Assembly (NCBI GenBank): GCA_963747235.1
Contig: CAVVEU010000033.1
Span: 1 to 64,000, forward strand
DNA length: 64,000 nucleotides
Origin: an uncultured Candidatus Rokubacteria bacterium
GTDB taxonomy: Bacteria > Methylomirabilota > Methylomirabilia > Rokubacteriales > CSP1-6
Direction of reading: 5' to 3'
The position numbers were made by a program, and so were the translations under genes. Positions 2,578 through 55,234 of this stretch are shown one piece after another. Each line of letters opens with the position of its first letter. The stretch's first letter is position 1. The notes under the pieces are model-generated. The model made no database searches. It saw only the letters and a program-made list of their open reading frames with translations, and had not been told where the DNA came from.

Positions 2578-3792
2578 ATGTCCCGCCAAGCTCACGCTCA
2601 GGGAAGCGCCGGCCCGGCGCGCGCGCGCATCGACGGCGTGCTCCGCCAGTCGGTGGACGCCAAGCAAGTCCCCGGGGTCGTCGCGATGGCGGCCACCGAC
2701 AAGGGCGTGCTCTACGAAGGCGCCTTCGGCCCGCGCGTGCTGGAGCCCGGCGCGGCCGCGATGACGCCCGACACCGTCTTCCGCATCGCGTCCATGACCA
2801 AGGTGATCACCTCGGTCGCGGCGATGCAGCTCGTCGAGCAGGGCAAGCTCAAGCTGGAAGACCCGGTGCCGAACATCGATCCCGCGCTGGGCTCGCCCCA
2901 GGTGCTCGACGGGTTCGACGCCTCCGGCGCGCCGAAGCTCCGGCCCGCGAAGCGGCCGATCACCCTGCGGCACCTGCTGACCCACACCGCCGGGTTCAGC
3001 TACGACATCTGGGACGCGAACACCGGGCGCTACATCAAGGCGTCGGGCATGCCCTCGCGGGCGACCGCCAAGGTCGCGTCCATCCGCACGCCGCTGATCT
3101 TCGATCCGGGCGACCGCTGGGAGTACGGCGTCAACACCGACTGGGTGGGCCGCATCGTCGAGGCGACCAGCGGGCAGCCGCTCGACGCCTACTTCCGCGA
3201 CAAGATCTTCGGGCCGCTCGGCATGAAGGACAGCGGCTACGTCACCACGCCCGAGCAGCGCGCCCGGCAGGCGCGGCTGCACCTGCGCCAGGCCGACGGG
3301 AGCCTCCAGCCGCAGCCGCTCGAGGCGGTGGCGGTGGCCGGCGAGTTCTGGTCGGGCGGCGGCCCGCTCTACTCGACGGGCCGCGACTACATCGAGTTCT
3401 TGCAGATGCTGCTGCACGGCGGGAGCTGGAAGGGCGCGCGCGTGCTGAAGCCGGAAACGGTGGCCCTGATGCAGCAGAACCACACCGGCGGCATCCCCGC
3501 CGGCATCATGAAGACGCAGATGCCCGCCCTGTCCAACGACGTCAATCTCTTCCCCGGGGCCGAGATCCGATGGGGGCTCGGCTACATGCTGAACGTCGGG
3601 CCCGGGCCGAACGGCCGGAGCGCGGGCACCGTGAGCTGGGGCGGGATCTTCAACACCTACTACTGGCTCGACCCCGCGAAGCGCGTCACCGGGCTGATCA
3701 TGACGCAGATCCTGCCGTTCGCGGACTCGCCGGCGCTCAAGCTCTACGGGCAGTTCGAGGACGCGGTGTACGCGGCGCTGCCCTCGGCCTGA
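2578..3792 (+). CDS. Serine hydrolase, beta-lactamase class C / esterase family
   Basis: FRIASMTK (SxxK), HLLTHTAG, WEYG, WGGIFNTYYWLDP. Confidence 0.9.
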   Translation: MSRQAHAQGSAGPARARIDGVLRQSVDAKQVPGVVAMAATDKGVLYEGAFGPRVLEPGAAAMTPDTVFRIASMTKVITSVAAMQLVEQGKLKLEDPVPNIDPALGSPQVLDGFDASGAPKLRPAKRPITLRHLLTHTAGFSYDIWDANTGRYIKASGMPSRATAKVASIRTPLIFDPGDRWEYGVNTDWVGRIVEATSGQPLDAYFRDKIFGPLGMKDSGYVTTPEQRARQARLHLRQADGSLQPQPLEAVAVAGEFWSGGGPLYSTGRDYIEFLQMLLHGGSWKGARVLKPETVALMQQNHTGGIPAGIMKTQMPALSNDVNLFPGAEIRWGLGYMLNVGPGPNGRSAGTVSWGGIFNTYYWLDPAKRVTGLIMTQILPFADSPALKLYGQFEDAVYAALPSA

Positions 3793-4867
3793 GCAGCCAG
3801 CCGTAGACGATCGAGTCCGGGCGCACCGTGTGTCCGGTGCGCCCGGACTCGTAGATCGCGAGCGCCACCTGCAGCATGTGCCGCGCGGCCCGCACGTCCT
3901 GGGCCGGCTGGCGCCCGTCGAGCACCCCGTCCACGAAGTCCGCCGCCGCGCCGTCGAAGCCGAGCCGCCAGTCCATCGGCACCTGGTAGCTCACGGTCTC
4001 GGTGCCGCGGATCACCTGCACCGGCGGCAGGTCGAGCATCTCCCCGCTGCAGCGGGTCACCCAGATGATGCCGCGGCTGCCGTGGATCTCGAAGAACTCG
4101 TCCACGCGGACGTACCGGCCGCGGATGACCATCTCGGGCGCGTGGGTGTAGTCCATGATCCCGAGGCAGTCGCGGTCCTTGAAGCGCCACGTGGCCACGC
4201 TCGGCGTCTCCAGGATGAAATCCTCGCCGCGCGTGACGATGGCGGAGACCTCGCCGATCTCGCCGATCCAGTAGGCGGCGGTGCCGTACTTGTGCACGCC
4301 GTCGTCGAACAGCACGCCACCCGGGTTGCGCGCCGGGTCCCGGCGCCAGACCATGGCGTCCGGCTCCATGTCGAGCGTGATGCCCTCCACGCGCTGGGCG
4401 CGCGTGGTGTGGATGCGCACCAGCGACGGCTCGCCGATGGCGCCCGCGTCGAGCAGCGCCTTGGCCTTCACGATGGGCGGGTAGTAGAGGAAGTTCTCGG
4501 TGACGCGGAAGATGGTCCGCGCGCGGGCCACCGCGGCCGCGATGCGATCGGCCTCGGCCACCGTGATCGCCAGCGGCTTCTGACACGACACGTGCTTGCC
4601 CGCGTCGAGCGCGGCCACGATCTGATCGGCGTGCATCCACGTGGGCGTGAGCAGCTCCACCGCGTCCACCGCGCGGTCGTCGAGCACCTGCGCGAAGTCG
4701 GAATAGAGGCGCGGCGTGATCCCCCACTCGGCGGCCCGCCGCTTCGCCCGCTCGGGCAGCGCGTCGCAGAGCGCGACCACGTCGCAGCGCGGGTGCTGGA
4801 GATAGCCGGGCGCGTTGAGCCGCGAGATGTTGCCGCATCCGACGATGGCCAGCCGCAGGCGGTCCAC
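3737..4867 (-). CDS. Gfo/Idh/MocA family oxidoreductase
   Basis: RLAIVGCGNI Rossmann fold, GKHVSCQKPLA, GGVLFDDGVH; the 3' end overlaps the convergent gene and may be shorter. Confidence 0.88.
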   Translation of the reverse strand: MDRLRLAIVGCGNISRLNAPGYLQHPRCDVVALCDALPERAKRRAAEWGITPRLYSDFAQVLDDRAVDAVELLTPTWMHADQIVAALDAGKHVSCQKPLAITVAEADRIAAAVARARTIFRVTENFLYYPPIVKAKALLDAGAIGEPSLVRIHTTRAQRVEGITLDMEPDAMVWRRDPARNPGGVLFDDGVHKYGTAAYWIGEIGEVSAIVTRGEDFILETPSVATWRFKDRDCLGIMDYTHAPEMVIRGRYVRVDEFFEIHGSRGIIWVTRCSGEMLDLPPVQVIRGTETVSYQVPMDWRLGFDGAAADFVDGVLDGRQPAQDVRAARHMLQVALAIYESGRTGHTVRPDSIVYGWLLRPRAAPRTPRPRTARRA

Positions 4868-4881
4868 GAGAGCGGCCCGCG

Positions 4882-5430
4882 TCAGGCCGGGAGCTTGTCG
4901 CCGTCGGGCGGGGCCGCCACCTCGAAGGCGTTGACCACCCCGCACAGCATCGCGAAGTAGCTCGCGGCCGCCGTCATCTCCACCAGCCACCGGGGGTCGT
5001 GCCGCCGGGCCAGCGCGTCGAAGGCCGCCTGCTCCACCTTGTTGGTGCGCATGAGCTGGCGCACGTAGACCACGATGTCGCGCTCGTCGGCGGGGAGGGC
5101 GGCCGCGTCGCCCCTGGCGCGCAGCACGTCGAGGGTCGCCTCGCTCACCCCGTTCCGCCGCGCCTGCGCGGTCTGGGCGGACCAGACGTAGGCCGCCTCG
5201 CGCTCCCGCACCGCGGCCAGGATGGCCACCGAGCGGAGCTTGCCCTCGACCGAGCTCTCGTCGCGGAAGAACGTGACCAGGGGCAGCAGGCGCTCCGCGA
5301 GCTGCGGGCTGTGCAGCAGCATGCTGAACGGTCCGCGCACGCCGCCGAAGACCTTGACGACCTGGTCGACGACGCCGTGGTGGGCGGCGGGGACATCTGA
5401 CTTGCCGGTGATGGGGGCGATGCGTGGCAT
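4882..5430 (-). CDS. Carboxymuconolactone decarboxylase (CMD)/AhpD-like protein without Cys motif
   Basis: GPFSMLLHSP, RSVAILAAVRE..AAYVWSAQ, EMTAAASYFAM pattern typical of CMD-like proteins. Confidence 0.75.
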   Translation of the reverse strand: MPRIAPITGKSDVPAAHHGVVDQVVKVFGGVRGPFSMLLHSPQLAERLLPLVTFFRDESSVEGKLRSVAILAAVREREAAYVWSAQTAQARRNGVSEATLDVLRARGDAAALPADERDIVVYVRQLMRTNKVEQAAFDALARRHDPRWLVEMTAAASYFAMLCGVVNAFEVAAPPDGDKLPA

Positions 5431-47354: not shown

Positions 47355-48104
47355 ATGCGACTCAAGGGCAAAGTGGCCATCGTCACCGGCGCGGCGCACG
47401 GAATGGGCGAGAGCGAAGCGATGATCTTCGCGCGCGAGGGCGCGAGCGTGATCGTCGCCGACGTGGACGCGGACGGGCAAAAGGTCGCGGCGAACATCAC
47501 CGGCGCGGGCGGGAAGGCGCAGTTCGTGAAGCTCGACGTCGCGAGCGAGGCGGACTGGGAAGCCGCCATCAAGACCACCGTCGCCGCGTACGGGCGGCTC
47601 GACATCCTCGTCAACAACGCGGGGATCAGCGGCACCCACGATCCCGACTACGAGAGCACCGCGGCGTGGGACCGGCTGATGGACATCAACGCCAAGAGCG
47701 TCTTCCTCGGCATGAAGCACGCGGTGCCGGTCATGCGGAAGGGCGGCGGCGGGTCCATCGTGAACATCTCGTCCATCTCCGGCTTCGTGGGGCAGGACAA
47801 GATCCACATGGGCTACAACGCCTCCAAGGGCGCGGTGCGGATCATGACCAAGTCCGGCGCGGTGCAGTACGGCAAGGACGGGATCCGCGTGAACTCGGTG
47901 CACCCCGGCTTCCTGCCCCCGATGCGGACCTCGAAGGGCTCGGCCGATCCGGCCTGGCGGAAGCCGCTGCTCGACTCGGTGCCCCTCCGCCGCGAAGGCC
48001 GGATCGAGGAAGTGGCCCACGCGGTCCTGTTCCTGGCCTCCGACGAGGCCTCGTACATCTCCGGGACCGAGCTGGTGGTGGACGGAGGCTTTCTCGCGGT
48101 CTGA
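47355..48104 (+). CDS. SDR family oxidoreductase (classical, YxxxK)
   Basis: TGAAHGMG, NNAG, YNASK, NSVHPG; AGGAGG RBS. Confidence 0.93.
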   Translation: MRLKGKVAIVTGAAHGMGESEAMIFAREGASVIVADVDADGQKVAANITGAGGKAQFVKLDVASEADWEAAIKTTVAAYGRLDILVNNAGISGTHDPDYESTAAWDRLMDINAKSVFLGMKHAVPVMRKGGGGSIVNISSISGFVGQDKIHMGYNASKGAVRIMTKSGAVQYGKDGIRVNSVHPGFLPPMRTSKGSADPAWRKPLLDSVPLRREGRIEEVAHAVLFLASDEASYISGTELVVDGGFLAV

Positions 48105-50479
48105 TGGCCACCCGGCGGATCCAGGGCTTCTGCGCGCTCTGCCGCTCGCGCTGCGGCTGCGTCTCGGTCGTGGAAGACGGGCGGCTGGTCGCGGTCGAGC
48201 CTGATCCTTCGCATCCCACCGGCGCCAGCCTCTGCGTGAAAGGCCGCGCCGCCCCGGAGCTGGTCTACGCGGAGGACCGGCTGCTCTACCCGATGCGCCG
48301 CACGCGGCCGAAGTCCGACCCGGACGCGGGCTGGGAGCGCATCAGCTGGGACGACGCGCTCGACTGGACGGCCGCGAGAATGCGCGAGGTCGCGCGGCGG
48401 CACGGGCCCGAGGGCGTGGCCTTCGGCTGCACGACCCCGGCGGGCACCGCGGTCTCCGACGGCTTCCTCTGGATCCTCCGTCTCATCCGCGCCTTCGGGA
48501 GCCCGAACCTGGTCTGGGGCGAGGAGCTGTGCGCCTGGCACCGGGACTTCGTCACCCCGTTCACGTTCGGCGTGGACATCGGCACGCCCGACTTCGAGCG
48601 CACCGGCTGTCTCCTGCTCTGGGGGCACAACCCGTCGGCCACGTACCTGGCGCAGGCCACCGCCGTCCAAGATGCGACTACGCGCGGAGCGGCCCTGGTC
48701 GTAGTGGACCCGCGCCGCGCGGGGGCGGCGGCCCGGGCGGATCAGTGGCTCCGCGTGCGCCCCGGCACCGACGGCGCGCTCGCGCTGGGGCTGGCCTCCG
48801 TCATGATCGCGGAGGGCTGGTACGATCGCGACTTCATCCGCGACTGGTCCAACGGCGCGTTCCTGGTGCGCGCCGACACCGGCCGCCTCCTCACCGCCGC
48901 CGATCTCTCCGCGGTGGGCAGCCCGGCGCACTACGTCGCGTGGGATCGCGCCGCGGCCCGGCCGGTCGCGTACGATCCGGCCACCGCCGACTTCATCGAG
49001 CCGATCGGCGATCCGCAGCTCGACGGGACCGTGCGGTGCATGACGCGCTCCGGCCCCGTCACGTGCGTGCCCGCGTTCGAGACCTACGCCACGCTCTGCC
49101 GCGAGTACCCGCCCGAGCGCGTGGAGGGCATCACCGGCGTCCCGGCCGCCCAGATCGTCGCGACCGCGCGGCTCCTGTGGGAGCGCCGCCCGGTCTCCTA
49201 CTTCCACTGGACCGGGCTCGAGCAGCACACCAACGCGAGCCAGACCGTGCGCGCGCTCTCGCTCCTCTACGCGCTCACCGGCTGCTTCGACGCGCCCGGC
49301 GGCAACGTGCGGCCGAGCCGCCCCGCGGTCAACGACCTGGCTCCGCTCGCGCTGCTCCCGGAGCGGCAGCGCGCGAAGGCGCTCGGCCTGGCCGGGCGGC
49401 CGCTCGGCCCCGCGCGCCAGGGCTGGCCCACCGCGGCCGATGCCTATCGCGCCATGCTCCACGGCGCGCCCTACCCGGTGCGCGGCATGGTCGGCTTCGG
49501 CACCAACCTGCTGCTCTCCGCGCCCGGCGCGGCCACCGCGCGCGCGGCGCTCACGAGCCTCGACTTCCTGGTCTACGCCGATCTCTTCCTGACGCCCACC
49601 GCCGCGCTGGCGGACATCGTCCTGCCGGTGTCCACCGCGTGGGAGCGCGAGGGCCTGCGCGTGGGCTTCGGGCCGACGCAGGACGGCGAGCAGCACGTGC
49701 AGCTCCGGCCCGCGGTGGTGGAGCCGCGGGGCGAGGCGCGCTCGGACATCTGGATCGTCTGCGAGCTGGCCCGGCGCCTGGGCCTGGGCGAGCGGTTCTG
49801 GGGCGGCGACGAGGACGCGGGCCACCGCTTCATGCTCGAGCCGACCGGTGTCACCGTCGAGCAGCTCCGCGCCAGTCCGGGCGGCGTGCGCACCGCGGTC
49901 GAGCCGCGCTTCAAGCGCTACGCGGCCCGCGGCGCCAATGGCCCGGTCGGCTTCGCCACGCCGAGCCGGCGGGTGGAGATCTTCTCCGCGCAGCTCCAGC
50001 AGCACGGCCAGTCGCCGCTGCCCGAGTTCGTCGAGCCCGCGGCGAGCCCGGTCAGCCGCCCCGACCTCGCCGAGCGTTTCCCGCTCCAGCTCACCACCGC
50101 CAAGGTCGTGCAGTTCTGCCACAGCCAGCACCGGAGCCTGGCGCGCCTGCGGCGGCACAGCCCCGACCCGCAGGTCGAGCTGCATCCGGACGCGGCCGAG
50201 GCCCGCGGCATCGCGAGCGACGACTGGGTGCTGATCGAGACGCCGCGCGCCACCATGCGGGCGCGGGCGCACCTCAATCCGAGCCTCGCCCCCGACGTGG
50301 TCTGCGCCCAGTTCGGCTGGTGGCAGGCGTGCGAGCCGCTCCAGCTCGGCGGCTACCCGGCGGAGGGCGCGACCAGCGCCAACTACAACAACCTGATCGA
50401 TCCCGACGCCGCCGATCCGATCAGCGGGACGGTCGCGCTGCGGTCCTATGTCTGCCAGGTCCGCCGAGGAGAGCCGTGA
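48104..50479 (+). CDS. Mo/W-bisPGD (DMSO reductase superfamily) oxidoreductase with N-terminal 4Fe-4S cluster
   Basis: CALCRSRC..LCVKG, RLLYPMRR, LWGHNP, VRPGTDGALALG, ADIVLP, FATPSRRVE, HSQHR. Confidence 0.9.
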   Translation: MATRRIQGFCALCRSRCGCVSVVEDGRLVAVEPDPSHPTGASLCVKGRAAPELVYAEDRLLYPMRRTRPKSDPDAGWERISWDDALDWTAARMREVARRHGPEGVAFGCTTPAGTAVSDGFLWILRLIRAFGSPNLVWGEELCAWHRDFVTPFTFGVDIGTPDFERTGCLLLWGHNPSATYLAQATAVQDATTRGAALVVVDPRRAGAAARADQWLRVRPGTDGALALGLASVMIAEGWYDRDFIRDWSNGAFLVRADTGRLLTAADLSAVGSPAHYVAWDRAAARPVAYDPATADFIEPIGDPQLDGTVRCMTRSGPVTCVPAFETYATLCREYPPERVEGITGVPAAQIVATARLLWERRPVSYFHWTGLEQHTNASQTVRALSLLYALTGCFDAPGGNVRPSRPAVNDLAPLALLPERQRAKALGLAGRPLGPARQGWPTAADAYRAMLHGAPYPVRGMVGFGTNLLLSAPGAATARAALTSLDFLVYADLFLTPTAALADIVLPVSTAWEREGLRVGFGPTQDGEQHVQLRPAVVEPRGEARSDIWIVCELARRLGLGERFWGGDEDAGHRFMLEPTGVTVEQLRASPGGVRTAVEPRFKRYAARGANGPVGFATPSRRVEIFSAQLQQHGQSPLPEFVEPAASPVSRPDLAERFPLQLTTAKVVQFCHSQHRSLARLRRHSPDPQVELHPDAAEARGIASDDWVLIETPRATMRARAHLNPSLAPDVVCAQFGWWQACEPLQLGGYPAEGATSANYNNLIDPDAADPISGTVALRSYVCQVRRGEP

Positions 50480-51293: not shown

Positions 51294-52256
51294 TCAGGCG
51301 ACCAGGACAACCTTGCCGTGGTGGCCGGCTTCCATCACCACCTCGTGGCTCCGCGCGGCCTGCGCCAGCGGGAGCTCCTGGGCGATGACCGGCCGGAGCG
51401 AGCCGTTGCGTAGCCCCTCGACGAGCTGGGCGTGGATGCCCGCGAGCTGGGCCGGCGTGGCGTGGTTGAGCGCCATGCCGAGGATGGCCGCGTCCTTGTT
51501 CATGGCGATGCGCGCGTTGATCTCGGTGTTGCCGCGGTTGCCGATGACCACGATGCGGCCCCGCAGCGCGATGGCGCCCAGATCCTTCTGGAGATTCACG
51601 TTCGCCAGCATCTCCATGATGATGTCGGGCCCGCGCCCGCCCGTCAGCTTGACGCACTCCTCGAGATAGCCCGCCGCGCTGTGGTCGAGCACGTGGTGCG
51701 CGCCCTGCTCCGCGACCAGGCGCCGCCCCTTCTCGGTGCTCGCGGTGCCGATGACGGTGAGGCCGCGCGCCCGCGCGAGCTGGACCGCGCCGATGCCGAC
51801 GCCGCCGCTGGCCCCGTGGACCAGCACCGTCTCGCCCGCCTCGCCGTGGGCGCGGTTGAAGAGCGCGTGATACGCGGTCGCGTAGGGCACGTTCATGGCC
51901 GCGCCCTGCGCGAAGCTGGCGCCGGCGGCCAGCGGGTGCACCTGCCCCTGCTCGCACACCGCGTACTCGGCGTAGGCGCCCGTGGCGGTGCCACCCACGT
52001 AGACGCGGTCGCCCTTCTTCACCGCGGTGACTCCGGAGCCCACCGCTTCGATGACGCCGGCCGCATCCCCGCCCGGGGTGTAGGGCAGCTTGGGCCCGCG
52101 GTTGTCGGTATTGCTGCGCAGGTAGGTGTCCACCGGATTGATGCCGACGGCGTGGTTGCGAACCAGCACCTGGCTGGGCCCCGGCTGGGGCGTGGGAATC
52201 TCCTCGAGCTTCAGGACCGCCGGACCACCGTACTCGGAGACGCGGATCGCTTTCAT
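51294..52256 (-). CDS. NADPH:quinone reductase (zeta-crystallin, MDR family)
   Basis: GINPVDTYLR, PYTPG, LVHGASGGVG, GKVVL. Confidence 0.92.
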   Translation of the reverse strand: MKAIRVSEYGGPAVLKLEEIPTPQPGPSQVLVRNHAVGINPVDTYLRSNTDNRGPKLPYTPGGDAAGVIEAVGSGVTAVKKGDRVYVGGTATGAYAEYAVCEQGQVHPLAAGASFAQGAAMNVPYATAYHALFNRAHGEAGETVLVHGASGGVGIGAVQLARARGLTVIGTASTEKGRRLVAEQGAHHVLDHSAAGYLEECVKLTGGRGPDIIMEMLANVNLQKDLGAIALRGRIVVIGNRGNTEINARIAMNKDAAILGMALNHATPAQLAGIHAQLVEGLRNGSLRPVIAQELPLAQAARSHEVVMEAGHHGKVVLVA

Positions 52257-52291
52257 GGGATGGGCTCCTTTCGGCCCCAGAGTCTACCTCA

Positions 52292-53014
52292 TCAGGACGC
52301 GGGTGGGTCGGGGGTTCCCATCCAGAACGGCGAGGTCTTGCCGATCCGCTCGAGATAGGCCCGGCGCTCCGCGGCGCGGCGTGGATACCACGACGAGAGA
52401 TAGTCGCCGTCCAGCATGTGCCGGCGGCTCTCGGTGCCGAAGAAGCCGACCAGCTCCGTGAGGGAAATGAAGCCTTGCTCCGACCGCGGCTCGAACTGGC
52501 TCCAGCGCCGCGCATGCTCTTCCGACCGGAAGAGGTTCATCCCGGTTCAGAGGTAGTACGATCGCCCGCGCGACGACCCGAACCCGAAGGCGAGATGGCC
52601 GATGATGGAGGGCGGATCCACCCAGGTGACGCGCCCGTCGCGCATCTCTACCGTGACGGGGTCGCCGCAGTCGAGGCACGACGCGTCCACCCGGACGGTC
52701 TCGCCCGGGAACAGCCACGTCGCGGACGTGGCCTCGAACCCGCACTGGGCGAACCAGCGCTGCTCTCCCCGCACCGTGATCCGGTACTGGGTGGGCAGGT
52801 TGTTCAGCGGCGGGAACGAGGCGATGTAATCGGTCTCGGGATGGAGCCAGCCGATCGGGTACGCCTGCATGACGTCGCGCAGCAGGCTCCGTCCTTCCTC
52901 GGCGGCCAGGCCGAGGGCCCGCGCCAGCTCCGCGTAGTGCGGGGCCCGGCCGGTGTCCACCAGAGTTCGCATGATGCGCTGGAACGCTTGATCCATCAGT
53001 TGCGTGTCGGACAT
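52292..53014 (-). CDS. MerB-like organometallic lyase, probable selenoprotein (240 aa; Sec156 from UGA 52549-52547)
   Basis: N-terminal HTH (GRAPHYAELARALG), WFAQCGFE, VRVDASCLDCGDPV, then YYL-TGA-TGMNLFRSEEHARRW in one frame; matches the MerB layout YAWCALD...SHC...FCCHVHFFAS. Confidence 0.82.
52517..52534 (-). promoter_or_regulatory. Putative bacterial SECIS hairpin
   Basis: CTCTTCC-GGTC-GGAAGAG beginning 12 nt 3' of the UGA; extendable by ATG/CAT pairing across a bulge. Confidence 0.75.
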
Positions 53015-53021
53015 GGCTTCT

Positions 53022-53057
53022 CCCCTCACCCTGCCCTCTCCCCTCTGGGGAGAGGGG
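53022..53057. repeat. boxC-like repeat overlapping the RidA 3' end
   Basis: CCCCTCACCCTGCCCTCTCCCC-TCT-GGGGAGAGGG; encodes PLPRGERAG-stop on the minus strand. Confidence 0.9.
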
Positions 53058-53451
53058 GAGGATCGGGCAGCACGGCGATTGCGGAGATCTCGATGAGGGC
53101 GCCCTCGCGGAGGAGGCCCGCGACGATGACGCCGGTGGCGGTCGGGAAGCGGCCCTTGAAGAACTCGCGGCGCACCTCGGCGGTCTTGGCGTAGCTCTCG
53201 GTGGTGGTGACGTACTCCGTGGTCTGCACGATGTGCTCGAAGCCGCCGCCCGCCGCGGCCAGAAGCTTCGCGAACTTCTCGAAGATATAGCGGGTCTGGG
53301 CCGCGATGTCGCCGGGCCCGACGATCTTGCCGCTCTCGTCCCCCGCGGTCATGCCCGAGATGAACAGCAGGTTGCCCGCGCGGACGGCGGGCGAGAACGT
53401 GTAGCGGGCGGGCCAGGGGCTCGGCCCCGTGATCACCTCGTAAGCTGGCAT
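53026..53451 (-). CDS. RidA/YjgF family protein
   Basis: FSPAVRAGNLLFISG, AEVRREFF..FPTATG, LIEISAIA; GAGGAGG RBS before ATG 53451. Confidence 0.9.
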   Translation of the reverse strand: MPAYEVITGPSPWPARYTFSPAVRAGNLLFISGMTAGDESGKIVGPGDIAAQTRYIFEKFAKLLAAAGGGFEHIVQTTEYVTTTESYAKTAEVRREFFKGRFPTATGVIVAGLLREGALIEISAIAVLPDPPPLPRGERAG

Positions 53452-53477
53452 CGCGATCCTCCTCGGGCGTGGGCCCA

Positions 53478-55103
53478 TCACCGCCCCCGCAGCAGGAACC
53501 GCTGGATCTTGCCGGTCTCGGTCTTCGGGAGCTGATCGAGAAACTCGATCTCCCGCGGGTACTGGTGCCGGCCCACGTGGGTCTTCACCACGTCCACGAT
53601 CTCGGTCTCGAGCCCGCGCTGCGCCGCGCAACCCGGCTTGAGGACGACGAAGGCCTTCACGATCTGGCCTCGCAGCGCGTCGGGCTTGCCCACCACCGCG
53701 GCCTCGGCCACCGCCGGGTGCTTCAGGATCGCGCTCTCCACCTCGAAGGGGCCGATGCGGTAGCCCGCGCTCTTGATGACGTCGTCGGCGCGGCCCTCGA
53801 ACCAGAAGTAGCCCTCGGCGTCGCGGCGAGCCAGATCGCCGCAGGTCATCCACTCGCCGCGGTACGTCTCTCGGTCGCGGTCCTCGTCCTTCCAGTAGCC
53901 GAGCGAGTAGTAACCCTCCGGGTCCGGCTTCATCCCGACGTGGCCGACGACGTCCGGCCCCACCTCGCGGCCGGCGTCGTCCACCACCGCGATCTCGCAG
54001 CCGGGCAGCGGCAGGCCCATCGAGCCCGGCTTGACCGTCATCTCCACGGTGGCGAAGTTGCCGATCGGCAGGCCGAACTCGCTCGAGCCGTACTGGTCGC
54101 GCACCGTGACGCCCCAGTGCTCGCGGAAGAAGCGGACGACCTCCGCGTTCAGCGGCTCGCCGCAGCTACTCGCGCTGCGCAGGCGCGACGCCCCGCTGCC
54201 GGCCCCATCGGCGCCGAGCGCCATCACGCCGCGCAGGAGCGTGGGCGTCGTGGCGAGGTTGGTCACCCCCAGCTCGCGCAGCCGCGCGACGCAGAACTCG
54301 GGCGTGGGCGCGGCCTCGTGCGAGAGCACGGGCACGCCCAGGGCGAGGGCACCCATGTAGCAGACCAGCCCGTAGCCCCAGCCGGGATCGCCGGTCGGCC
54401 AGAAGACGTCGTCGGCCAGTAGATCCGCGCCGTGCACGAGATGGGGATGGATCGCGACGAGGAAGTTCGCCGCGATCTTGACGCCCTTGGGCGGCCCGGT
54501 CGAGCCCGACGTGTAGAGCAGCACCGCGGGATCTTCTCGACGGACGTCGGTCAATCGGGCCACCTCGGGCTGCCCGTGCATGATCCGCCAGAAGTCCACG
54601 TCGCCCGGGGCGCCGCCGGCGCCGCCCGCCACCGTGACGACCGTGACCCCGTCCGGCAGCGGCGCGGGCAGCCGCCCGCGCTGCTCCCACTGCGTGACCA
54701 GCACCCGTGCGCCGCTGTGGCGGACCCGGAACTCGATGGCGTCGGGTCCGAAGCCGGTGAAGATCGGCACGTAGACCGCGCCCACCTTCCACGTCCCGAT
54801 CATCGCGATCAGCATCTCGGGAATGCGGGGCAGGAAGCCCGCGACCCGCTCGCCGGGACCCACGCCCAGCTCCCGCAGCACGTTGGCGAACCGGGCGGTC
54901 AGCCGCGCCAGCTCGTCGAACGTGTAGGTCCGCGCCTCCCCGCGCTTGCCGAACCATCGGAGCGCGGCACGGCCGGAGCCGGCGTGGCGGTCCACGATCG
55001 CGCGGCCGAGATTCACCGGCGCGCCCGCCGCTGCGCCCATGGCGCGGGCGCTCTCCTCCCAGCGGAAGGCCTGGCACGCGTCGCGATGGGTCGGGCGGCT
55101 CAT
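53478..55103 (-). CDS. Acyl-CoA synthetase (AMP-forming, short/medium-chain type)
   Basis: YTSGSTGPPKG, DQYGSSE, GRADDVIKSAGYRIGPFEVES, LPKTETGKI. Confidence 0.93.
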   Translation of the reverse strand: MSRPTHRDACQAFRWEESARAMGAAAGAPVNLGRAIVDRHAGSGRAALRWFGKRGEARTYTFDELARLTARFANVLRELGVGPGERVAGFLPRIPEMLIAMIGTWKVGAVYVPIFTGFGPDAIEFRVRHSGARVLVTQWEQRGRLPAPLPDGVTVVTVAGGAGGAPGDVDFWRIMHGQPEVARLTDVRREDPAVLLYTSGSTGPPKGVKIAANFLVAIHPHLVHGADLLADDVFWPTGDPGWGYGLVCYMGALALGVPVLSHEAAPTPEFCVARLRELGVTNLATTPTLLRGVMALGADGAGSGASRLRSASSCGEPLNAEVVRFFREHWGVTVRDQYGSSEFGLPIGNFATVEMTVKPGSMGLPLPGCEIAVVDDAGREVGPDVVGHVGMKPDPEGYYSLGYWKDEDRDRETYRGEWMTCGDLARRDAEGYFWFEGRADDVIKSAGYRIGPFEVESAILKHPAVAEAAVVGKPDALRGQIVKAFVVLKPGCAAQRGLETEIVDVVKTHVGRHQYPREIEFLDQLPKTETGKIQRFLLRGR

Positions 55104-55126
55104 GATCCGGGGTGCGGCCATCGAGA

Positions 55127-55167
55127 ATACCGCACTCGGGGGATACCGCACTGGGGGATACCGCACT
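55127..55167. repeat. Triple direct repeat ATACCGCACT (periods 16 and 15 nt) in a divergent promoter region
   Basis: Copies at 55127, 55143 and 55158. Confidence 0.85.
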
Positions 55168-55234
55168 TGCGCGAAACCGGCGGACGGGATACACCAGTGG
55201 GCGAACGGCACCCCGAGACCAGGAGAGACCGCCC

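Follow-up and report, generated by a model that had tools for sequence, protein, structure and literature searches.

The locus examined here raises the question of whether two short "hypothetical" open reading frames (ORFs) encode two proteins, or a single MerB-like protein in which an in-frame UGA is read as selenocysteine (Sec), and what such a protein might do. The two ORFs, 52547..53029 and 52292..52540, are located on the minus strand of a 64,000-nucleotide stretch of DNA from an uncultured Candidatus Rokubacteria bacterium (assembly GCA_963747235.1, contig CAVVEU010000033.1, positions 1 to 64,000), which is referred to as the window. They lie in one frame with TGA-ACC-GGG in between, and the second ORF begins at ATG 52540, which encodes Met159, two codons past the TGA. 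In an earlier note, made from the letters of the window, the ORFs were joined into a protein of 240 residues, with the UGA at a catalytic position of MerB and a hairpin starting 12 nt after it. Translation gives exactly this frame, in which codon 156 (52547-52549) is the sole in-frame TGA between ATG 53014 and position 52295, and the two ORFs are one gene. The motifs AQC91-GFE94 and U156-TGMNLFRSEEHARRW are also present as written in that note, as is the perfect hairpin CTCTTCC-GGTC-GGAAGAG. The 155 codons from ATG 53014 to the TGA correspond to the N-terminal length in the homologs, and the upstream gene stops 11 nt before this ATG. GTG 53029 was also considered as a start codon and is disfavoured, since the homologs begin at ATG 53014, 155 residues before the TGA.

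The conservation of the UGA codon was examined in loci from species-representative genomes and from metagenomes. All 79 of the genome loci that span codon 156 have TGA at this position (80 loci in total, of which the 80th is too short), as have 52 of the 52 spanning loci from metagenomes (56 loci, four of which are too short). Identity to the window protein falls to 45% among the TGA-bearing loci, and the labels of the metagenome-assembled genomes (MAGs) in which they are found include Methylomirabilota/Rokubacteria, Actinomycetota, Chloroflexota, Myxococcota, Nitrospinota and Tectomicrobia. No TGA was demanded in the back-translated search patterns, and one of them had Cys at this position, so the sampling was not biased towards TGA. 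This pattern, derived from the Cys-form homolog P0125, was the seed of the metagenome scan, which returned Sec forms at all 52 spanning loci. The same TGA in 131 independent assemblies also argues that the codon is not a read error.

The homologous genes do not end at the UGA. Past the TGA, 69 loci have a further 62-93 open codons and ten loci from Acidimicrobiia have 193-217, and the terminal stop codon of the 79 genes varies (TGA in 59, TAG in 13, TAA in 7). Pairwise divergence was concentrated at third codon positions on both sides of the TGA (0.135/0.093/0.405 for the three positions upstream and 0.135/0.138/0.368 downstream), as estimated from 50 of the 79 loci after exclusion of those with less than 72% identity and of five with a 2-codon insertion. 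By this measure, the downstream frame is translated and under purifying selection, as is the frame upstream of the TGA. In the six full-length distant homologs examined (23-45% identity, alignment A2), column 156 is occupied by Cys in all six.

The hairpin downstream of the UGA resembles a bacterial Sec insertion sequence (bSECIS). In a published bSECIS model (PMC13188914, legend of Fig. 2), the loop has 3-9 nt with G in the first two loop positions, the upper stem has 4-16 bp, the distance from the UGA to the loop is 16-37 nt and the minimum free energy is at most -7.5 kcal/mol. With a loop of 4 nt that starts with GG, a stem of 7 bp, a distance of 19 nt and a free energy of -9.1 kcal/mol for the hairpin alone, the element in the window falls within all of these ranges. 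Equal stability was reached in 1 of 200 shuffles for the hairpin alone, and in 9 of 200 for the 42 nt that follow from the UGA (-16.2 kcal/mol), and an 81-nt segment was not unusually stable (z -0.25); fold stability by itself proves nothing. Support for a SECIS comes from the invariance of synonymous sites and from one compensatory event in two possibly related loci. Codons 161-165 (CTC TTC CGG TCG GAA) do not vary among the sequences (80 of 80, and 76 of 76 for the Ser codon where Ser is kept). Leu, Arg and Ser are six-fold degenerate amino acids. Outside codons 157-170, the codon entropy of the 55 conserved degenerate positions averages 0.93 bit, with a single value below 0.15. Base pairing at the six inner positions of the stem is kept throughout the 131 sequences (87 distinct). 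The one departure, found in the two metagenome loci, is a compensatory replacement of C-G by U-A, which combines a synonymous (TTC>TTT) with a non-synonymous (GAA>AAA) substitution. The apical loop is GGUC in 126 of these sequences, GGGC in four and GGGG in one; the SECIS of E. coli fdhF also has a loop of the GGUC type. The peptide R-S-E-E, which is encoded by the hairpin, is invariant in the Sec forms and different in all six Cys forms, which points to a constraint at the RNA level rather than at the protein level; loss of the hairpin in the Cys forms was judged at the protein level only.

The genome from which the window is taken (5.57 Mb in 42 contigs, 88% complete) contains the Sec genes selA, selB, selC and selD. 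A selA gene (500 bits) is located on contig C14, next to a frame of 756 amino acids with a SelB wing domain (73.8 bits) and a gene for tRNA-Sec with anticodon tca (selC, C14:45384-45481), and selD is located on contig C27 (227.8 bits as compared to a cut-off of 125). The genome also encodes a formate dehydrogenase (FDH)-like molybdopterin enzyme (C8:590841-591800) whose gene has its in-frame TGA within HQARV-U-HSATV, a classic selenoprotein motif, which indicates that the Sec trait is in use in this genome.

The read-through protein matches the Pfam family MerB (PF03243) with 60.3 bits over residues 73-189, a segment that spans the TGA. The gathering threshold of this family is 27 bits; the N-terminal piece alone scored 36.9 bits and the C-terminal piece alone had no Pfam match. 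The gene, with one TGA inside, is also the sole match to PF03243 in the genome (52.9 bits). HMMER searches against solved structures identified MerB2 (5c17, E 1.4e-7) and MerB (3f2g, 1s6l and others), and in these alignments the counterparts of C91, E94 and U156 are Cys96, Asp99 and Cys159, respectively, which is the register given in the earlier note; the spacing from C91 to U156 is 65 residues, as compared to 63 in MerB. C91 is invariant in alignment A4 and E94 is nearly invariant (at least 90% of the rows). An AlphaFold2 model of the read-through protein, for which an alignment of 37 sequences was used as input, had a mean predicted local distance difference test (pLDDT) score of 93.1 and a predicted template modeling score (pTM) of 0.88, with lower confidence only in the loop before U156 (pLDDT 75-78) and in the final ten residues. 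All of the 11 Foldseek matches of this model in the PDB at E <= 0.001 were to MerB or MerB2 (best E 1.1e-10, TM 0.58-0.69), and the next matches were to winged-helix regulators (LexA/MntR/DtxR) at E > 0.3. As modelled, the read-through product is a MerB-fold protein. The extra C-terminal tail described in the earlier note was confirmed and has a predicted fold (pLDDT 95-97 at residues 190-230), and it is particular to a Rokubacteria-type subclade.

These results show a single gene with a MerB fold, a Sec codon at a catalytic position and a conserved SECIS, in a genome with Sec machinery, and UGA 156 is almost certainly read as Sec. All of the checks by which the earlier note could have been overturned turned out to favor it. 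In the mechanism that we propose, SelB and tRNA-Sec would be recruited by the hairpin with the GGUC loop 12 nt downstream and decode UGA 156 as Sec, giving a cytosolic MerB-fold selenoprotein of 240 residues with a selenolate at the position of MerB Cys159, opposite Cys91 and beside Glu94. By analogy to MerB, the substrate would be an organometal(loid), with its metal or metalloid bound by the Cys/Sec pair and its leaving carbon protonated by the carboxylate of Glu94. According to a review (PMC11639659), selone mimics of MerB cleave the Hg-C bond faster than their sulfur analogs. The explanation that best covers all observations, and that is likely on the whole, is an enzyme for Sec-assisted carbon-metal(loid) protonolysis outside any mer operon. 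Taken alone, the lyase chemistry of carbon-metal(loid) protonolysis is the most likely chemistry but an evenly balanced proposition, and an organomercurial substrate, with methylmercury as one candidate, can be suggested only with considerable doubt.

Several observations weigh against such a Sec-dependent lyase. With regard to the decoding, the upper stem showed no covariation in the set of 80 loci (as assessed by counting pairs in a stem that is invariant), and a lower stem with a 3-nt bulge, which is predicted in many homologs, is not established, as 72.6% of its cells in the 80 loci were paired, which is not above shuffles, with no covariation. A scan of positions 52200-53100 against Rfam at E <= 10 gave chance-level matches only, none of which was at the hairpin. 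The hairpin predicted downstream of the TGA in the FDH-like gene has a different loop and lends no support to a shared SelB motif. One database protein of 217 amino acids, P0002 (78% identical), has Cys at position 156 with the LFRSEE motif intact, which may be a real TGC or a TGA translated as Cys. With regard to the chemistry, the position of the proton donor is occupied by Glu instead of Asp. MerA was not found above the cut-off in the genome (best match 299.9 bits as compared to 454.45), and MerT had no match in this 88%-complete genome, in which MerR and MerP were not searched for. The classical route for mercury detoxification is thus missing, in agreement with the lack of mer genes in the earlier note. 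In addition, no neighboring gene recurs beyond single clades across the 80 loci, and since the neighborhood is not conserved, the context provides no clue to the substrate. Because neither the neighborhood nor the mer context is informative, the function was argued from the active site.

The main rival is a second function, namely that the protein is a MerB-fold selenoprotein but not a lyase, in which Cys91 and Sec156 form a binding or hand-over site for soft metal(loid)s, as in a chaperone, a sequestration protein or a sensor, or a redox-active selenenylsulfide. The missing MerA (above the cut-off) and MerT, the non-conserved neighborhood and the replacement of Asp99 by Glu all fit with this explanation. 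So does the weak likeness of the N-terminal 55-70 residues to a winged helix, although the Foldseek matches (E > 0.3) and the Pfam matches to the helix-turn-helix family HTH_AsnC (E 0.04-0.08) are below any significance threshold. As described in a preprint (bioRxiv 10.1101/2022.07.06.499078), MerB binds other metals at the mercury site and a single change turns it into a copper binder. On the other hand, a pure binding site would have no need for the near-invariant acid at position 94, and the geometry of the whole MerB catalytic triad is kept. We consider a binding or redox function possible, but on balance rather unlikely.

The next alternative is that the TGA is a true stop codon and that the 82-codon ORF is translated from ATG 52540 by coupling. 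This ATG is invariant (80/80), and pairs of exactly this kind are what gene callers produce. A search of protein databases gave 554 matches at E <= 0.001, and among the best 120 of these, 118 cover 62-64% of the query, that is, they end at the TGA, while two cover 98-100%, P0002 and P0006, the latter being a frame-shifted reading. A wider search gave 569 matches at E <= 0.001, including many N-terminal stumps and several C-terminal pieces of 72-108 amino acids that start at residue 159. Stumps that end at the TGA together with fragments that start at residue 159 indicate a split made by gene callers, as the earlier note had supposed. For two separate genes, it would be difficult to account for an internal stop that is TGA in 131 of 131 sequences when 20 of the 79 genes end in TAG or TAA, or for the frozen synonymous sites of the hairpin. 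The Cys homologs are, moreover, continuous and four of the six retain the Met, so that Met159 is a residue of the family rather than a start, and the split form would be left without the residue equivalent to Cys159. Two genes are thus a very improbable explanation, and a single selenoprotein gene is retained in what follows.

We also compared the window protein to its known relatives, among which SaoL comes closest in being a selenoprotein. SaoL is described as a selenoprotein of the clostridial Selenocysteine-Assisted Organometallic (SAO) system, in which it is the MerB-like organometallic lyase, with hosts that are exclusively anaerobic (NCBIfam NF040728; Haft & Gwadz, bioRxiv 10.1101/2022.07.06.499078). 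Could the window gene be a SaoL ortholog that was displaced from its locus? Both proteins have the fold of PF03243, the Sec of SaoL likewise aligns with MerB Cys159 in that description, the database records of both are cut at the UGA, and NF040728 was the best NCBIfam match of the window protein. This match, however, reached only 37-39 bits as compared to a cut-off of 140, and it covered residues 13-137 only. Furthermore, the C-U dipeptide of SaoL is replaced by L155-U156, and Cys precedes U in none of the 31 Sec-form rows of alignment A4, in which the residue is L, I, M, A, R or S. The acid, which is Asp102 in the published description of SaoL, is Glu here, and the Rokubacteria-type members have the extra folded tail, unlike SaoL. 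SaoL is placed in a neighborhood of nine SAO genes in the same description, while none was found at this locus (models for the SAO components were not searched genome-wide), where the neighbors are unrelated to metal transport. The hosts of the window-type gene are soil and sediment bacteria of the Methylomirabilota, Acidimicrobiia, Chloroflexota and others and not exclusively anaerobic, in contrast to the strict anaerobes reported for SaoL. Displaced SaoL orthology is therefore highly unlikely.

The similarity to MerB itself (EC 4.99.1.2; PDB 3F0O/3F0P/1S6L; MerB2 5C17) lies in the fold and in the register of Cys, acid and chalcogen, with an identity of 19-23% over structural alignments. Cys159 of MerB is replaced by Sec, Cys160 is absent and Asp99 is replaced by Glu; MerB is encoded in a mer operon, whereas the window gene is not. 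Scores against the NCBIfam models for MerB, NF009710 and NF033555, were 33.2 and 29.1 bits, which is below the cut-offs of 193 and 200, respectively. Judged by these scores, the window protein is a member of PF03243 that belongs to neither of the curated equivalogs, MerB and SaoL, and the TGA-bearing genes appear to constitute a second, uncatalogued clade of Sec-containing MerB-like proteins. In the parts of the published full texts that could be searched, no description of this clade was found and SaoL was the only MerB-like selenoprotein; supplements may list the clade.

The Cys forms (e.g., P0125, P0136, P0142) share with the window protein the length, the C-G-x-E motif and C-x-x-M around position 156, are similar to it in the C-terminal region, and differ from it in having Cys for Sec and in that the hairpin-coding R-S-E-E is not conserved. 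Two loci, L160 (G073:C37:9448-10304) and L161 (G075:C102:28501-29375), have TGA at both of the ligand codons, 91 and 156, in the contexts WFAQ-U-GFEA and R-U-AGMNLFRSEE, and a third TGA at codon 219 that is a likely stop. These di-Sec forms share the context of U156 and the hairpin-coding peptide with the window gene, from which they differ by the second UGA at codon 91. The two genomes belong to the same bacterial family as the window, and the di-Sec forms nest with Chloroflexota-type sequences in the tree.

Finally, a pseudogene or an assembly error, that is, a nonsense mutation or a miscalled base in a Cys codon, is hardly credible, for although genes are split over frames elsewhere in this assembly (a selD-like gene on contig C8, MerA-like pieces) and one metagenome locus (L155) lacks 1 nt directly past the TGA, the same TGA is found in 131 independent assemblies, purifying selection is seen on either side of it, and all full-length matches of at least 40% identity in the phylum carry it.

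Within the phylum of the window, a match at E <= 1e-10 was found in 87 of 251 genomes (a tally that includes the unpublished genome G216), in 33 of 104 high-quality genomes and in 18 of 20 genomes of the window's genus. A selA gene was found in 215 of the 251 genomes (including the unpublished G076 and G034), so its presence alongside the MerB-like gene does not discriminate. At least nine of the 87 gene holders had no match to selA; the holders lacking a match are MAGs of 67-96% completeness. In a tree of 39 sequences, the window protein is placed in a well-supported Rokubacteria clade, while the Cys forms are on long branches (1.2-5.1), and the direction of change between Sec and Cys is not settled by the tree. 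Some contigs with genes 80-93% identical to the window gene are assigned to unrelated phyla, although the flanking genes are the same in most of them; those with 86-93% identity share the synteny of the window. These loci from genome contigs (L011, L018, L021, L023, L026, L033 and L060) have labels such as Acidoferrum, Nitrosotalea, Nitrosocosmicus, Verrucomicrobiia, Dormiibacterota, Limnocylindria and Deferrimicrobiaceae, even including an archaeon, and they are probably binning errors rather than transfers.

In the searches made here, the family is stored in databases as a stump of 155 amino acids plus, sometimes, a "hypothetical" protein of 82 amino acids, and a family hidden Markov model in which the Sec position is marked would mend hundreds of records. 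The family adds a second lineage of MerB-like selenoproteins, in soil and sediment bacteria rather than in strict anaerobes, and the Sec lineage and the di-Sec form together argue that Sec at the metal site was selected for metal chemistry. Surveys of methylmercury demethylation that are based on merB would miss or misjudge such genes, and if the proteins are active, estimates of the demethylation potential of soils would change. More speculatively, and with low confidence, the genes may form a large mer-independent clade of Sec-dependent carbon-metal(loid) lyases, whose substrate, methylmercury or some other organometal(loid), would be demethylated at the trace levels that occur in nature. 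If so, this lyase clade, to which the di-Sec form would be a sister, would be present in about a third of the genomes of Methylomirabilota and in several further phyla of soils and sediments. It would act as an overlooked biological sink in the cycling of mercury or metalloids, one that escapes surveys based on merB because the gene is truncated in every database. The SECIS is unusually invariant, as 18 nt hardly differ between phyla, and is thus a handy element for tests of SelB recognition.

The coordinates of the gene, its parts and its neighbors are listed in Table 1. The neighboring genes are those named in the earlier note, an acyl-CoA ligase, a Rid-family protein and a quinone oxidoreductase. 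Across the 80 loci, the quinone oxidoreductase was adjacent in 17, the Rid-family gene in 15 and the acyl-CoA ligase in 14, and synteny with these three genes was confined to loci of at least 85% identity. A Pfam search with ten recurrent flanking ORFs identified only a luciferase-like monooxygenase and a P450/ABC1 frame.

Table 1. Positions in the window of the MerB-like selenoprotein gene, its sequence elements and the adjacent genes.
Feature	Position	Strand	Remarks
Read-through coding sequence of the MerB-like selenoprotein	52295..53014	minus	240 codons; translation, PF03243, AlphaFold2 model
Likely start codon ATG	53012..53014	minus	preceded by GGGGAGAAG; homologs begin at the same Met
Codon of Cys91	52742..52744	minus	equivalent to MerB Cys96 (first metal ligand); alignment
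Codon of Glu94	52733..52735	minus	position of MerB Asp99 (proton donor); alignment
In-frame UGA, codon 156, almost certainly read as Sec	52547..52549	minus	aligned with MerB catalytic Cys159
bSECIS core, CUCUUCC/GGAAGAG	52517..52534	minus	7-bp stem, loop GGUC (52524-52527)
Possible lower stem	52509..52545	minus	3-nt AAC bulge; predicted in many homologs, weak in the window
Terminal stop codon TGA	52292-52294	minus	translation
PIG3-type NAD(P)H quinone oxidoreductase	51294..52256	minus	downstream neighbor, 35 nt away
Rid-family protein	about 53026-53460	minus	upstream neighbor
AMP-binding (AMP-forming) acyl-CoA ligase	53478-55211	minus	upstream of the Rid-family gene

A few additional observations were made at this locus and elsewhere. 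About 2 kb from the selenoprotein gene, on the plus strand at positions 47666-50479, a molybdopterin oxidoreductase (Fe4S4, Molybdopterin and Molydop_binding domains) is encoded without an in-frame stop, and is thus a non-Sec form. A second, G+C-rich hairpin of 10 bp, CCCCTCTCCCC-AGA-GGGGAGAGGG-like, is located on the minus strand at positions 53034-53056, in the 3'-terminal part of the Rid-family ORF and about 20 nt upstream of the start codon ATG. All of the chance-level Rfam matches fall on this hairpin, which may act as an attenuator or to stabilize the mRNA, or may have no role. A genome-wide scan for a TGA followed by a hairpin with a GG loop gave 136 candidates in this GC-rich genome, which was too noisy to identify a shared SECIS motif. 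Also in this genome, the model matches of several genes similar to selD and to pyridine-nucleotide-disulfide oxidoreductases are spread over two or three overlapping frames (C8:303114-303868, C8:295111-296288 and C27:46033-46945), which suggests assembly indel errors or real frameshifts.

Among the homologous loci, the deletion in metagenome locus L155 (about 3001-3511) shifts the frame right after the TGA, and genome locus L054 (3839-3890) has an additional in-frame stop near the 5' end, where the start may be 17 codons later. The ten Poriferisodalis-type loci from Acidimicrobiia (L080-L090, about 4445-5098) share, through their longer open frame, a conserved extension of about 145 amino acids, which may be a fusion or an overlapping gene; no Pfam family matched their 153-amino-acid C-terminal extension.

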